Shown piece after piece: positions 23,298 through 27,245 of a DNA stretch of 64,000 nucleotides (its first letter is position 1; the number at the start of each line of letters is the position of its first letter). The DNA is taken from positions 250,539 through 314,538 of the forward strand of contig JAWSUS010000002.1 in the NCBI GenBank assembly GCA_033549025.1. The letters run 5' to 3'. The position numbers and the translations under genes were made by a program. The notes beneath the pieces were generated by a model. The model saw only the letters and a list, made by a program, of their open reading frames with translations. It made no database searches and was not told where the DNA came from. This stretch comes from Desulfuromonadales bacterium. Its GTDB lineage: Bacteria; Desulfobacterota; Desulfuromonadia; Desulfuromonadales; SZUA-540.

Positions 23298-23504
23298 GTT
23301 GTTTCGGCGAAGAGGAGCTTGCCGCTCCTCTTCGCCCCATTCCATCTCACTTGCGCTCCACCCGTCCCCCAAAGACCCTCCACCTGGCCCTGATTCACCG
23401 TATTTTTAAGAGGTTGCAAAAAATCCTCCGGACAGCTAGTCTATGGGGGTTTTTTGCGTGTCGGTGACAAAGGCCGGCGACTCAGCACCAAGGAGGAAAG
23501 TTCT

Positions 23505-24209
23505 ATGCCGTATGTACGTAATGTGGCCGCAATGGCTTTTCTTGTCCTGCTGGCCCTGCCCCTGGCGGCAGCGGCGGAAACCCGCTACGTGTCCGATCAG
23601 CTCGTTGTCACCCTGCGCCAGCAGCCGGCGGATCAGGCCGAGGTGATCACCACGATGCGCACGGACACGCCCCTCGAAATCCTGGCCGATCAGGGGCGCT
23701 ATCTTCAGGTGAGAATCCCGTCCGGGGAAAAAGGCTACGTTCTCAGTCAATATGTTACCACTGAGCTGCCCAAACCCCTGATTATCGATCGGCTGCAAAA
23801 TGAGCTGGCCCAGCTTCAGCAGAAGCTGGCTGTGGCGGAAAAAGCCCGCGACGCCGCCATAAACGAGCAACAAACGATCCAGGCGACCCTGACGGAAGAA
23901 AGCCAGACCACCGAACAGCAGGTGACCGAGCTGCAAACCGCCCTGGACCAGACCCGCGGTGAACTTCAGGAGGCCACCGAGCGCTACGATACGCTGCTGG
24001 CCAACTCGCGTGAAGTCGTCAACATCACCAACGCCCGCAACCAGCTGGAAGAGGACAACGCCCGTCTAAGCGCCGAGATCGAGACAATCCGCCAAGAGAA
24101 CAAGAAGCTGCTGACTACCGGCATGATCCAGTGGTTCCTGGCCGGTGGCGGCGTTTTTCTGATCGGCTGGCTGGTCGGAAAACTCTCCCGCAAGAGAAGA
24201 AGCTTCTGA
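23505..24209 (+). CDS. SH3-domain membrane-anchored protein (YgiM/TIGR04211-like)
   Basis: Signal peptide, ETRYVSD, coiled coil, WFLAGGGV TM segment, basic tail. Confidence 0.85.
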   Translation: MPYVRNVAAMAFLVLLALPLAAAAETRYVSDQLVVTLRQQPADQAEVITTMRTDTPLEILADQGRYLQVRIPSGEKGYVLSQYVTTELPKPLIIDRLQNELAQLQQKLAVAEKARDAAINEQQTIQATLTEESQTTEQQVTELQTALDQTRGELQEATERYDTLLANSREVVNITNARNQLEEDNARLSAEIETIRQENKKLLTTGMIQWFLAGGGVFLIGWLVGKLSRKRRSF

Positions 24210-24312
24210 CGGCCACAGACGGCCGTCCTCCCTGTCTGACGCAGGAAAGCATTGACTTTCCGCAAACACTGTGTTAACCAAGCAATCCAACGTAAAAGGA
24301 GAGCTTCACGTG

Positions 24313-24408
24313 ATGTTTTCCGGCAAAGGGCACAACATGGCAGCGGCGGCAGCCGCGGCGAAGGCGGCGGCAATCGGCCGCACCTGTGCCCATCTCTTTG
24401 CTGGCTGA
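24313..24408 (+). CDS. Putative alanine-rich leader peptide
   Basis: AGGAG RBS; MFSGKGHNMAAAAAAAKAAAIGRTCAHLFAG*; 10 Ala in 11 consecutive codons. Confidence 0.75.
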   Translation: MFSGKGHNMAAAAAAAKAAAIGRTCAHLFAG

Positions 24409-24434
24409 CCGCAAGCGGTCCTTGAAAAGCGAGC

Positions 24435-24472
24435 AGGCCATGGGCGCAGTCGTCCATGGCCTTTTCATATTT
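24435..24472 (+). terminator. Attenuator terminator upstream of the aminotransferase
   Basis: 12-bp stem AGGCCATGGGCG/CGTCCATGGCCT followed by TTTCATATTT. Confidence 0.75.
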
Positions 24473-24524
24473 AGCTGATTTTTCGCCGCAGGGCGACGCC
24501 ACTACCAAGACGGGGAGATAGGTT

Positions 24525-25835
24525 ATGCGCAACAATATTGTGCACATCGGCGCCGGAGAACTGACTTACGAGATCCGGGCTATTGTCGAGATTGCCGAGA
24601 AGCTGAACAAGCTCGGCATGAAAACGAACATGGAAAACATTGGCGATCCTATCGCCAAGGGTGAGAAAATCCCCGACTGGATGAAGAAGATCGTCGCCGA
24701 TCTGGCCATGAAGGACTGCTCTTACGGCTACTGCCCGACCCGGGGCGTGCTGGAGACCCGTGAATTTCTGGCCGAGTTGACCAACAAGCGCGGCAAAACG
24801 CAGATCAGCGCCGACGACATCCTTTTTTTCAACGGCCTCGGCGACGCCATCCAGAAGGTCTACGGCTTCCTGCGCCGCGAGGCCCGCGTCATCGGCCCCT
24901 CGCCGACCTACTCCACCCACTCCTCCGGCGAAGCGGCCCACGCCGGGCAAAAGCCGGTCTCCTACCGGCTTGATCCCGACAACAACTGGTACCCCGACCT
25001 GGACGATCTGCGCCTGTCGATCAAATACAATCCGGCCATCGCCGGCATCCTCATCATCAACCCCGACAACCCCACGGGCGCCGTCTACCCCGAGCGCATT
25101 CTCAAGGAGATGATCGCCATCGCCAAAGAGTATGACCTCTTCATCATCTGTGACGAGATCTACCACAACATCGTCTACAACGGGCAGTCGACCAAGCCCA
25201 TCTCCGACCTCATCGGCGACGTTCCCGCCATCGCCATGAAAGGGATCAGCAAGGAAGCACCCTGGCCGGGGGCACGCTGCGGCTGGATCGAGGTCTATAA
25301 TGCCGACAAGGATCCCGTCTTCAAACAGTACGTGCAGAGCATCGTCAACTCCAAGATGGTCGAGGTCTGCTCCACCACGCTGCCGCAGAAGGCCATTCCG
25401 CCCATCCTGAGCCACCCCAAGTATCCGGCCTATCTCGAAGAGCGCAAGAGCCGTTACGAGAGATACTCCAACATCGCCTACGACCTGCTCAAGGAAGTGC
25501 CCGGCATCAAGGTCAACCGTACCAACGGCGCTTTCTACATGAGCATCGTCTTTGAAAAGGGCCGACTCAACGACCGCCAGAGCCTGCCTATCGAAATTCA
25601 GGAAGTCAAAAACCTGGTGGAAGGCCTGGTCGACCAGCCCGGCGTCTCGCTGGATAAGCGCTTTGTCTATTACCTGCTGGCCTCCACGGGCATCTGCGTC
25701 GTCCCCATTTCCTCCTTCTGCACACCGGAAATGGGCTTCCGCATCACCCTGCTCGAACGCAATGAAAAAGAATTCACCAGCATTTTCGAACGCATCGGCG
25801 CCAGCATTACCGCCTATCTTCAGTCCGCGCCCTAA
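24525..25835 (+). CDS. Class I PLP aminotransferase, AlaA/alanine transaminase-like
   Basis: TYEIR, NIGDP, INPDNPTG, DEIY, GISK..PGARCGW. Confidence 0.85.
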   Translation: MRNNIVHIGAGELTYEIRAIVEIAEKLNKLGMKTNMENIGDPIAKGEKIPDWMKKIVADLAMKDCSYGYCPTRGVLETREFLAELTNKRGKTQISADDILFFNGLGDAIQKVYGFLRREARVIGPSPTYSTHSSGEAAHAGQKPVSYRLDPDNNWYPDLDDLRLSIKYNPAIAGILIINPDNPTGAVYPERILKEMIAIAKEYDLFIICDEIYHNIVYNGQSTKPISDLIGDVPAIAMKGISKEAPWPGARCGWIEVYNADKDPVFKQYVQSIVNSKMVEVCSTTLPQKAIPPILSHPKYPAYLEERKSRYERYSNIAYDLLKEVPGIKVNRTNGAFYMSIVFEKGRLNDRQSLPIEIQEVKNLVEGLVDQPGVSLDKRFVYYLLASTGICVVPISSFCTPEMGFRITLLERNEKEFTSIFERIGASITAYLQSAP

Positions 25836-25886
25836 TGGAGAGCCGGCCCTCGGGCCGGCTTTTTCGTCGCCGCTGAAAGGGAGTCC

Positions 25887-27245
25887 ATGACGACCTTCAT
25901 CAAACCCAACCTGGAGCAGAGCATCGACTCTCGACAGGATCTCGTCGCCTACCTTTCCCGCGGTGCCAAGCCGCGGGAGAGCTGGGGCATCGGCGCCGAA
26001 ATGGAAAAACTGGTGGTCGACGCCGAAACGGGCCAGGCCGCTTCCTATGACCGTATCAGGGCCCTGCTTGAATCGCTGCTGGCTGACGGCTCCTGGGTCG
26101 GCATTTACGAAGGTCCCCATCTCATCGCCCTGAAAGACGCCTCCTCCTCGGTGACCCTGGAGCCAGGCGGCCAGCTGGAACTCTCCGGCGCCCTCTGTGC
26201 GGACATCCATTGCTGCCAGCAGGGATTTTCCCGTCATATCGACGGCATCATCGGCGCCGGACGCACCCTCGGGCTGCGTTTTCTCGGTCTGGGCGTACAG
26301 CCCTTCAGTCGCCTGGAAGAGATCGGCTGGGTTCCCAAGGCCCGCTACGATATCATGGGGCCCTACATGCAGCGCACGGGCGACATGGGGCCGCGCATGA
26401 TGAAGCAGAGCGCCGGCCTGCAGGTCAACCTCGACTACAGCAGTGAGGCGGACTGTTTCCGCAAACTGCGTCTGGCCTTTCAGCTCTCCCCGCTCTTCTA
26501 CGCCCTCTTCGCCAATTCCCCCCTTATGGACGGCAGGCCCAGCGGCTTCCTCTCCACCCGGGGCGAAATCTGGGCGCGCACCGATGCCGACCGCAGCGGC
26601 CTGGTCCCCCGCCTGCTCCTGCCGGGAGCCACCTTCGAGGACTACGCCGACTACGCCCTCGAGGTACCGATGTATTTCATCATTCGCGATGGGAAGTATG
26701 TCGATTTCACCCGGGAGCGCTTCAGCTTTCGTCGTTATCTCGAGGAAGGCTTCGGTCTCCATCGTGCCACCCTGGGCGACTGGGATCTGCATCTCTCCAC
26801 CCTCTTTCCCGAGGCGCGCCTGCGCCCGCAAATCGAGATCCGCACCGCCGACAGCCTTCCTTCCCGGACGACCCTGGCGGTGGCCGCCCTGGTCAAAGGG
26901 CTCTTTTACGATGACCAGGCCTTCGCTGACAGCCAGGCCCTCTTCGACAGGGTGGATTTCGACACCCTTACCTCTGCCTACCGCCAGTCCTGGCGTCTCG
27001 GGCTGCAGACCCCCTTCGGCGCCGGCACCCTGCAGACCCTGGCCCGCGACATTCTGGCTATTGCCCGCGACAGCCTACAGCGACAAAAAGCTCTTGATGA
27101 AAGCGGTCAGGATGAAACCCTCTACCTGCGGGAAATCGACGAAATCGCCCTTACGGGCAAAACCCTGGCCGAGCGCCTGCTCGCGCGCTGGCAGGGCTCT
27201 CCTGCCGACAAGCTGCACGCCCTCTATGACCATTGCGGCTTCTGA
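25887..27245 (+). CDS. gshA: Glutamate-cysteine ligase (GCS2/plant-type)
   Basis: GIGAEMEK, VTLEPGGQLELSG, PKARY, QVNLD, HLSTLFPEARL, IEIRTAD. Confidence 0.85.
   Translation: MTTFIKPNLEQSIDSRQDLVAYLSRGAKPRESWGIGAEMEKLVVDAETGQAASYDRIRALLESLLADGSWVGIYEGPHLIALKDASSSVTLEPGGQLELSGALCADIHCCQQGFSRHIDGIIGAGRTLGLRFLGLGVQPFSRLEEIGWVPKARYDIMGPYMQRTGDMGPRMMKQSAGLQVNLDYSSEADCFRKLRLAFQLSPLFYALFANSPLMDGRPSGFLSTRGEIWARTDADRSGLVPRLLLPGATFEDYADYALEVPMYFIIRDGKYVDFTRERFSFRRYLEEGFGLHRATLGDWDLHLSTLFPEARLRPQIEIRTADSLPSRTTLAVAALVKGLFYDDQAFADSQALFDRVDFDTLTSAYRQSWRLGLQTPFGAGTLQTLARDILAIARDSLQRQKALDESGQDETLYLREIDEIALTGKTLAERLLARWQGSPADKLHALYDHCGF

Follow-up and report, generated by a model that had tools for sequence, protein, structure and literature searches.

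The classical leader-peptide attenuators of the enterobacteria (trpL, hisL, leuL, thrL, pheL and ilvL) share one layout. A short translated open reading frame (ORF) contains a run of codons specifying the amino acid that the pathway makes, an intrinsic terminator separates this ORF from the structural gene, and an alternative pairing overlaps the 5' arm of that terminator; the position of the ribosome is the signal. The run may consist of non-preferred codons, as in leuL, which uses rare CUA codons. The textbook examples cover His, Trp, Leu, Thr, Phe and Ile/Val. In mycobacteria, polycysteine leaderless short ORFs are reportedly cysteine-responsive attenuators of downstream biosynthetic genes (bioRxiv 10.1101/834739). 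To our knowledge, the control of alanine synthesis is poorly understood; Escherichia coli alaA is controlled by Lrp and is not known to be governed by a leader peptide. Here we describe an alanine-rich leader ORF, followed by an intrinsic terminator, directly upstream of a pyridoxal phosphate (PLP)-dependent aminotransferase gene in a 64,000-nt stretch of a Desulfuromonadales genome (contig JAWSUS010000002.1; the whole stretch is referred to below as the window). Very probably this unit is a genuine leader-peptide attenuator dedicated to the aminotransferase gene. Like the polycysteine ORFs it has a small ORF, placed upstream, in which codons for one amino acid form a run, and it differs from them in that theirs is cysteine.

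Two mycobacterial upstream ORFs (uORFs) come closest to the arrangement found here. In the Mycobacterium tuberculosis ilvB1 uORF, as described (PMC13236596), a ribosome at the stop codon masks RNA and blocks the antiterminator, while a ribosome stalled at the regulatory codons allows the antiterminator to form. The ilvB1 uORF shares its three-element logic with the Ala leader, and it differs in having four branched-chain codons (LVVI), in belonging to another phylum and in having been tested with reporters, whereas the Ala leader is known from sequence. The mycobacterial whiB7 uORF (PMC10274678) is enriched in alanine and followed by a Rho-independent terminator; alanine shortage leads to read-through and to more of the alanine aminotransferase aspC. 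That system acts in trans, the attenuator governing WhiB7, which then activates aspC and resistance genes, whereas the Ala leader directly precedes its aminotransferase gene. The whiB7 uORF is also longer, its Ala content is 25-40% where the leader described here has a near-pure run, and it reacts to a range of stresses (PMC10274678).

No alanine leader peptide directly upstream of an aminotransferase was found in our literature search, which had most subscription journals outside its coverage. Neither Naville and Gautheret 2010 (PMC2965389) nor Korolev et al. 2016 (PMC4833913) mentions alanine, aminotransferase, Geobacter or Deltaproteobacteria (or Desulf-). An initial annotation of this DNA had stated that no characterised poly-Ala attenuator of alanine biosynthesis was known to its author. 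This stands for a direct, cis-acting one; it does not stand more broadly, since the whiB7 uORF, the one alanine-tuned uORF that we found in print, acts through a transcription factor (PMC10274678), and we therefore restrict the claim of novelty to a direct cis-acting alanine attenuator.

The locus itself has the layout of the classical systems: a short ORF in which codons for the presumed end product are clustered in a run, an intrinsic terminator separating this ORF from the structural gene, a predicted alternative pairing over the terminator 5' arm, non-preferred codons within the run and, as predicted here, ribosome position as the signal. It is unlike them in that the sensed amino acid would be alanine, in that it precedes one aminotransferase gene and not the operon of a pathway, and in that no conserved 1:2 helix was found. 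No sequence or Rfam relationship to the classical leaders was found for the window or for 12 orthologous loci. The features are collected in Table 1.

Table 1. Features of the aminotransferase locus, in window coordinates
Feature	Position	Strand	Details
Upstream TIGR04211 SH3-domain protein gene	23454-24209		C-terminal membrane anchor
Promoter-like site	24252..24280	+	-35 TTGACT 24252-24257; 17-nt spacer; TG 24272-24273; -10 TAACCA 24275-24280; read from sequence
Shine-Dalgarno AGGAG of leader ORF	24297..24301	+	Read from sequence
Leader ORF, 31-32 codons	24310..24408	+	Start GTG 24310 or ATG 24313; stop TGA 24406-24408
GGGCACA, possible region 1	24331..24337	+	Partner TGTGCCC 24385-24391 (minimum-energy fold, full length)
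Control codons	24340..24372	+	7 Ala, Lys, 3 Ala (10 Ala in 11); read from sequence
Region 2, putative antiterminator 5' strand	24385..24402	+	TGTGCCCAT (24385-24393), CTC, TTTGCT (24397-24402); within 3' end of leader ORF
Small hairpin GACCGCAAGCGGTC straddling leader stop codon	24407..24420	+	Window folds
Region 3, terminator 5' arm and flanks	24432..24448	+	AGCAGG (24432-24437), CC, ATGGGCGCA (24440-24448); common to antiterminator and terminator
Predicted intrinsic terminator	24435..24472	+	Stem 24435-24446 / 24451-24462; loop CAGT; tail TTTCATATTT
Shine-Dalgarno GGGGAG of aminotransferase gene	24513..24518	+	Read from sequence
PLP-dependent aminotransferase, predicted alanine aminotransferase	24525..25835	+	436 aa; NCBIfam NF005334 and solved relatives
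Terminator-like GC-rich hairpin and T5	25842-25859, T5 to 25864		Between aminotransferase and glutamate-cysteine-ligase-like gene; -22.4 kcal/mol
Glutamate-cysteine-ligase-like gene	25887-27245		Downstream of aminotransferase; TIGR01436 405 bits, below cut-off 463

The promoter-like site, the AGGAG, the Ala ORF, the 12-bp terminator and the complementarity between leader and terminator, all noted in the initial annotation, were recovered from the sequence at the same positions. Its count of 10 Ala in 11 codons with mixed codon use was also correct: the run has GCA three times, GCG six times and GCC once, and is interrupted by one AAG. Translation of the ORF from ATG 24313 would give MFSGKGHNMAAAAAAAKAAAIGRTCAHLFAG. 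The in-frame GTG at 24310 is nearer to the AGGAG than is ATG 24313, and the relatives L003 and L004 carry an ATG at that position. The run exceeds what chance would produce, because it is unique in the genome: among 48,316 six-frame ORFs of at least 15 aa, only the leader ORF and its own antisense reach at least 9 Ala in 11 codons.

We compared the 450 nt upstream of each aminotransferase ortholog in the order; an ortholog is present in all 41 sampled genomes at 73-100% identity. As the initial annotation had anticipated, an Ala-rich ORF recurs at these loci. At least 6 Ala in 11 codons are present upstream in 36/41 genomes, at least 7 in 31/41 and at least 8 in 23/41, compared with three of 414 control windows from the same loci at the first threshold and none at the second. 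An ORF homologous to the leader precedes the aminotransferase in 40/41 genomes, and the same number have the hairpin AAGGCCATGGGC-loop-GCCCATGGCC (the 3' arm is also found as GCCCATGGCCTTTT) followed by T's. The sole exception, L032 (genome G026), has neither the Ala ORF nor the hairpin and was excluded from every alignment. The terminator tail follows the Ala window at a uniform distance (136-159 nt), and GGCCATGGGC, in the terminator 5' arm region, is almost invariant. On an alignment of these order loci (A1, 40 rows), RNAalifold returns the terminator alone, with 11 pairs, six of which show compensatory changes. In two genomes, for instance, GGCCGCGG/CCGCGGCC replaces GGCCATGG/CCATGGCC.

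The element extends beyond the order. In a phylum sample, 31 of 201 genomes have an ortholog at an E-value of at most 1e-100, and an Ala ORF with a terminator is present at 9 of the 28 new loci. These nine, picked because their leader was visible, were added to A1 to give alignment A2 (49 rows), from which we built a covariance model, R1. In its own genome R1 has one match at 86.3 bits, the next being at 20.8 bits (E = 0.08), and this search returned no second copy of the element before other genes such as alaS. Across the class, R1 matches 121/151 genomes and 52/58 genera, nearly always as a single full-length match; the extra matches are weak and partial (30-37 bits). In all 29 new best loci the aminotransferase start lies 20-60 nt past the match. 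A scan of GTDB species gave 80 loci, of which 77 were assessed (L128, L138 and L182 were skipped, their upstream DNA being too short). Of the 77, 41 have an ORF in which 6 or more of 11 codons are Ala, each of them with a terminator-like hairpin, and the carriers include genomes labelled Desulfuromonadales/Desulfuromonadaceae and Geobacteraceae. They include the cultured Desulfuromusa kysingii DSM 7343 (L131), where an Ala ORF (7/11 codons) and a terminator hairpin lie upstream of the ortholog. Also among the carriers, with a plainer Ala leader (e.g. AAAAAAAPVVPVV) and a different hairpin sequence, are Desulfobacteraceae- and Desulforhabdus-labelled genomes; in L167, L170, L171, L173, L176, L178, L179 and L181 (labelled Desulfobacteraceae, Desulfobacterales or Desulforhabdus), for instance, leaders such as SNGAAAAAAAPVVPVV are accompanied by a GGGCTGCGGGC- or GGGGCTGC-type hairpin. 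These divergent leaders suggest either an older common origin or repeated invention before this enzyme family.

Several features of the alignments point to a leader that ribosomes decode. Mean column entropy is 0.76 at first, 0.83 at second and 1.44 at third codon positions (A2 columns 28-57, 49 leaders), and each Ala position shows all four GCN codons. In 40/40 loci the Ala-frame stop precedes the terminator 5' arm by 19-47 nt (median 25), and in 39/40 by 15-40 nt; in the other two frames a stop falls within 15-40 nt in only 3/40 and 5/40 loci, with first stops scattered, a comparison that is partly selection-biased as the most Ala-rich ORF was picked. Because third positions vary and the stop position is fixed, we take the ORF to be read as codons. 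An in-frame start behind GGAG, GAGG or AGGA is found in 35/49 leaders. The ends of the peptide, N-termini included, vary freely while the Ala run is kept. The leaders avoid the preferred Ala codon, GCC, which accounts for 58% of the Ala codons across the genome's long ORFs and for about 19% of those in the leaders' Ala columns. Together with the promoter motif described below, the entropy, the stop position and the start with its Shine-Dalgarno site support the predicted translation of the leader ORF. The leader-attenuator layout proposed in the initial annotation is accordingly borne out at the level of conservation, with ORF, control codons and terminator all kept, third positions varying and the stop position fixed.

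Four leaders from a sister order (Geobacteraceae-like L053, L054, L062 and L063) show no Shine-Dalgarno core, and their conserved -10 element is separated from the leader ATG by only some 7-12 nt. The leader ORF of these four may be translated from a leaderless or nearly leaderless mRNA.

The promoter-like site is conserved with the leader. A TTGAC-N15-17-TGnTA motif lies upstream of 48/49 leaders, 28-90 nt 5' of the Ala window, and of its 32 occurrences in 254,914 nt (loci L001-L030, both strands) about 30 are at leaders. A consensus promoter scan of the window listed no site at 24252-24280, its second hexamer having a final A where the consensus has T; the promoter claim therefore depends on this conservation.

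In the window, the terminator begins 26 nt past the leader stop codon and has a stem of 12 pairs, eight of them G-C, with a loop of 4. Its folding energy is -24.6 kcal/mol (z = -5.8), and none of 200 shuffled sequences was as stable. TGTGCCCAT in region 2 is complementary to ATGGGCGCA in region 3, and the pairing is extended by TTTGCT with AGCAGG. The resulting alternative fold (24383-24450) has a computed energy of -34.6 kcal/mol (z = -3.95), compared with -36.6 kcal/mol for the competing form, in which the terminator forms together with an inner hairpin; by these energies the predicted antiterminator and terminator forms are nearly iso-energetic. The last Ala codon (24370), the start of region 2 (24385) and the stop codon (24406) follow one another within the leader, a geometry that would suit coverage of region 2 by a ribosome at the stop codon and not by one on the control codons. 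In Rfam there was no relevant match to the window at E up to 10, the three matches at E of at least 3.5 being on the other strand or unrelated, and none to the 12 orthologous loci at E up to 0.1.

Region 2 recurs in the relatives as a conserved block (consensus TGCCCGTnGCCT) that can pair with the terminator 5' arm. The antiterminator is paired in 80.6% of cells on A1, compared with 32-46% when the partner is slid; on A2 the values are 76.9% and 35-46%, and seven of 12 pairs have changed somewhat on both sides. By eye, the two strands change together in L042, L043, L053 and L055. The initial annotation had suggested looking for a covarying terminator and antiterminator. For the terminator this was found (40/41 genomes; 6/11 pairs compensatory); for the antiterminator, complementarity holds (77% vs 35-46% slid) but covariation is weak.

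To follow the effect of ribosome position, we folded only the RNA 3' of the ribosome, truncated before the terminator 3' arm. With the ribosome on the first, middle or last Ala codon, the modelled probability that the terminator 5' arm is sequestered is 0.74, 0.75 and 0.72, respectively, compared with 0.22 with the ribosome on the stop codon, and the last-Ala value is the greater in 38/40 loci. The upstream segment folds more stably than its shuffled versions (mean z = -2.0; 22/40 loci under -1.64). The stop codon lies inside a small hairpin of the inner segment in 33/40 leaders, and the sequence of this hairpin varies by taxon. Folding of the whole leader with the ribosome footprint masked, the check put forward in the initial annotation, did not discriminate between positions (0.66 / 0.69 / 0.62), because pairs across the ribosome were allowed. 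RNAduplex scores for region 2 against the terminator arm gave weak z-scores relative to mononucleotide shuffles, because GC-rich segments pair well by chance.

Two further RNA structures were considered and rejected. A conserved 1:2 protector or pause helix of the trp type is unsupported family-wide (58% of cells paired vs 31-47% slid), though the window's own fold contains such a pairing (GGGCACA with TGTGCCC); a 1:2 hairpin is not required for an attenuator of the three-element type. A selected pause hairpin formed by the Ala codons was also set aside: synonymous shuffles are equally stable (mean z = -0.03), with one of 49 leaders below -1.64.

We consider it likely that the unit is a ribosome-mediated transcription attenuator, predicted to raise transcription of the aminotransferase gene when charged Ala-tRNA is scarce. 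The design would have three elements: control codons, antiterminator and terminator. The conserved promoter would give a short transcript with a Shine-Dalgarno site and then the 31-32-codon ORF with 10 Ala in 11 codons. As it emerges, the nascent leader RNA would fold co-transcriptionally into the antiterminator, in which region 2 pairs with region 3 (about -35 kcal/mol). With Ala-tRNA plentiful, the ribosome would pass the Ala codons and reach the stop codon, unwinding and covering region 2 and the hairpin at the stop. With region 2 covered, the 5' arm would be freed, the terminator would form and transcription would stop at about 24465-24472. With Ala-tRNA scarce, the ribosome would stall within 24340-24372, its footprint falling short of 24385. 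While it is stalled on the Ala codons the antiterminator would stay, and polymerase would continue into the aminotransferase gene. The added enzyme would then presumably make alanine from pyruvate. We infer the sensing of Ala-tRNA, termination at 24463-24472 and the formation of alanine by the enzyme.

The regulated enzyme matches NCBIfam NF005334 at 755.8 bits (cut-off 443), an equivalog without a specific function name. Its best solved relatives are E. coli AlaA (4cvq; E = 1.7e-46, residues 13-367) and 1xi9 (6.3e-46). The description of the enzyme as AlaA-like in the initial annotation therefore holds in so far as AlaA is the best solved match; it has to be loosened in that the similarity, judged by sequence comparison, is distant and the alanine-aminotransferase model NF006230 scores below its cut-off. 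Both AlaA and the regulated enzyme are PLP fold-type I aminotransferases, and glutamate-pyruvate transaminase activity is predicted for the latter, with indirect support from the Ala leader. ACGGGGAGA precedes the aminotransferase ATG in many orthologs too.

A number of observations weigh against the attenuator model. An obvious Shine-Dalgarno core is missing from 14/49 leaders. Covariation of the antiterminator is weak, with column shuffles reaching the observed score in 84/500 cases on A1 and 36/500 on A2, and the case for this helix therefore depends on conserved complementarity. The ribosome-position model exceeds its control only slightly: dinucleotide-shuffled upstream segments also sequester the terminator 5' arm (P = 0.60 vs 0.72 observed), and only 12/40 loci beat 95% of their shuffles. 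The enzyme scores 201 bits against NF006230, whose cut-off is 534. The genome also encodes an alanine dehydrogenase (G000:C15:62439-63536; TIGR00518, 538.8 bits, over the cut-off), and the aminotransferase is therefore not the sole candidate route to alanine. The nine phylum rows of A2 were, as noted, selected for a visible leader. R1 finds no leader in one family of the order, that of L032 (0/10 genomes), and in the GTDB scan the Desulfobulbia-labelled loci (Desulfocapsa, Desulfobulbus, Desulfurivibrio) have no Ala leader despite having the ortholog. Lastly, a CGA-GCU step inside the run of most leaders is conserved at the nucleotide level, with CGA in 39/49 rows, and the model does not account for it.

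Two side observations belong with these points. The alanine dehydrogenase is a second possible route to or from alanine. The leaderless carriers (the L032 family and L139-L159) keep the aminotransferase at about 67-80% identity, with neither Ala leader nor terminator upstream.

The CGA-GCU step is seen in the form that the run takes in most relatives, which reads A-A-R-A-x-S-A-A-A. The Arg codon is CGA in those 39 rows and CGT in one, and the next codon is GCU, GCG or GCA (A2 columns 34-39, L005-L063); genome-wide, CGA makes up about 8% of Arg codons. The genus of the window lacks CGAGCU and retains the Ala run, terminator and promoter. No pairing partner for the CGAGC motif was found, the best partners being spread between -60 and +190, counted from the ORF end, in a search where, for a few loci, the first CGAGC taken differed from the aligned motif. 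Slow decoding of CGA by I:A wobble was considered as an explanation and is weakened by a tRNA-Arg(UCG) gene in the genome. Since the step is unexplained by the model, another factor may act on the leader.

Of the other explanations for the locus, the one that survives best, though we regard it as unlikely, is that the leader is a general sensor of translation stress rather than an alanine gauge. Any slowing of the leader ribosome, whether by antibiotics, shortage of another amino acid or low ribosome supply, would then give read-through, with the Ala run just one trigger among several, as described for the whiB7 uORF. An attenuator of this design reacts to ribosome position regardless of the cause, the leaders contain the conserved rare Arg codon CGA, and the whiB7 uORF reacts to many starvations and drugs (PMC10274678). 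Such a sensor would leave the extremity of the Ala run unexplained, which takes up 10/11 codons in the window and 6-10 of 11 in 36/41 relatives, in a peptide otherwise conserved solely in the Arg and in the 3' part that overlaps the RNA pairing. The identity of the regulated gene, an aminotransferase with AlaA as its best solved match, also favours alanine as the signal.

A less probable alternative, which we doubt, is that the leader RNA is under the control of a protein, small RNA or ligand that recognises the CGAGCUA/GCGGCCGC block, with the ORF secondary or incidental. This would fit the conservation of the CGA-GCU nucleotides beyond coding needs, the failure to find a pairing partner for them, and the weak covariation of the antiterminator. 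It fits poorly with a conservation period of three bases in which third positions are free at the Ala codons, with a stop position that is specific to one frame, and with Shine-Dalgarno sites and starts that are conserved while the N-termini vary. The window's genus, moreover, does without CGAGCU yet keeps Ala run, terminator and promoter, and no Rfam family matches the window or the 12 orthologous loci.

The peptide itself could be the sensor. TnaC stalls the ribosome with tryptophan, and by analogy A-A-R-A-x-S-A-A-A might stall it on free alanine or another metabolite, so that induction would follow excess rather than shortage. We consider such nascent-peptide arrest very improbable, despite an Arg-Ala that is conserved within the run and an enzyme that is reversible in principle and could serve catabolism. 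Cognate codon runs are the hallmark of starvation sensing; the window's genus has a plain Ala run with Lys in place of the motif, the Desulfobacteraceae-type leaders are plain Ala runs, and the Arg is fixed as one codon, not as an amino acid.

Finally, a chance ORF beside an ordinary terminator of the upstream SH3-domain gene, as might be entertained given the many short ORFs in GC-rich DNA and one RNA-library contig that starts upstream of the predicted promoter, is refuted by the comparisons made here: no other locus of the genome has such an Ala run, the unit tracks the aminotransferase (leader in 40/41) rather than the SH3 gene (adjacent in 7/30 loci), and 29/29 R1 matches lie directly ahead of the aminotransferase.

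Returning to the alanine attenuator, we can offer a tentative role for the CGA-GCU(A) at the head of the run, to which we attach a low probability. Fixed at the nucleotide level across two orders, it might be a stall amplifier: slow reading of the Arg codon, or an effect of Arg-Ala in the nascent chain, would make the Ala codons that follow rate-limiting, so that the ribosome becomes a graded gauge of alanine. Together with the plain-run versions in other Desulfobacterota, these leaders might then form the missing alanine branch of attenuation, and NF005334 might comprise the regulated alanine synthases of these anaerobes.

The SH3-domain gene neighbours the aminotransferase locus in just 7/30 loci, and between this gene (23454-24209) and the leader promoter there is no terminator-like site in the window. 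The glutamate-cysteine-ligase-like gene adjoins the aminotransferase in 26/30 loci; the hairpin with T5 between the two was unlisted by the terminator scan. Assembled RNA-library contigs from two studies (23900-24697, 24330-24775, 24372-24628 and 24243-24626) span leader, terminator and gene start, and are uninformative on 3' end, start, strand and level, with DNA carry-over possible. One of these contigs begins at 24243, ahead of the predicted -35, and one crosses the junction between the SH3 gene and the leader.

A simple model of promoter, Ala run and GGCCATGGGC terminator is enough to search for the element, and a cultured carrier, D. kysingii DSM 7343, makes bench work feasible. The leader would annotate, by regulatory logic, an aminotransferase family that NCBI names only generically. 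In bacteria that reduce metals or sulfur it would provide a small, naturally occurring switch that responds to alanine. With a direct cis-acting Ala leader conserved throughout a bacterial class, alanine would join the amino acids served by attenuators.

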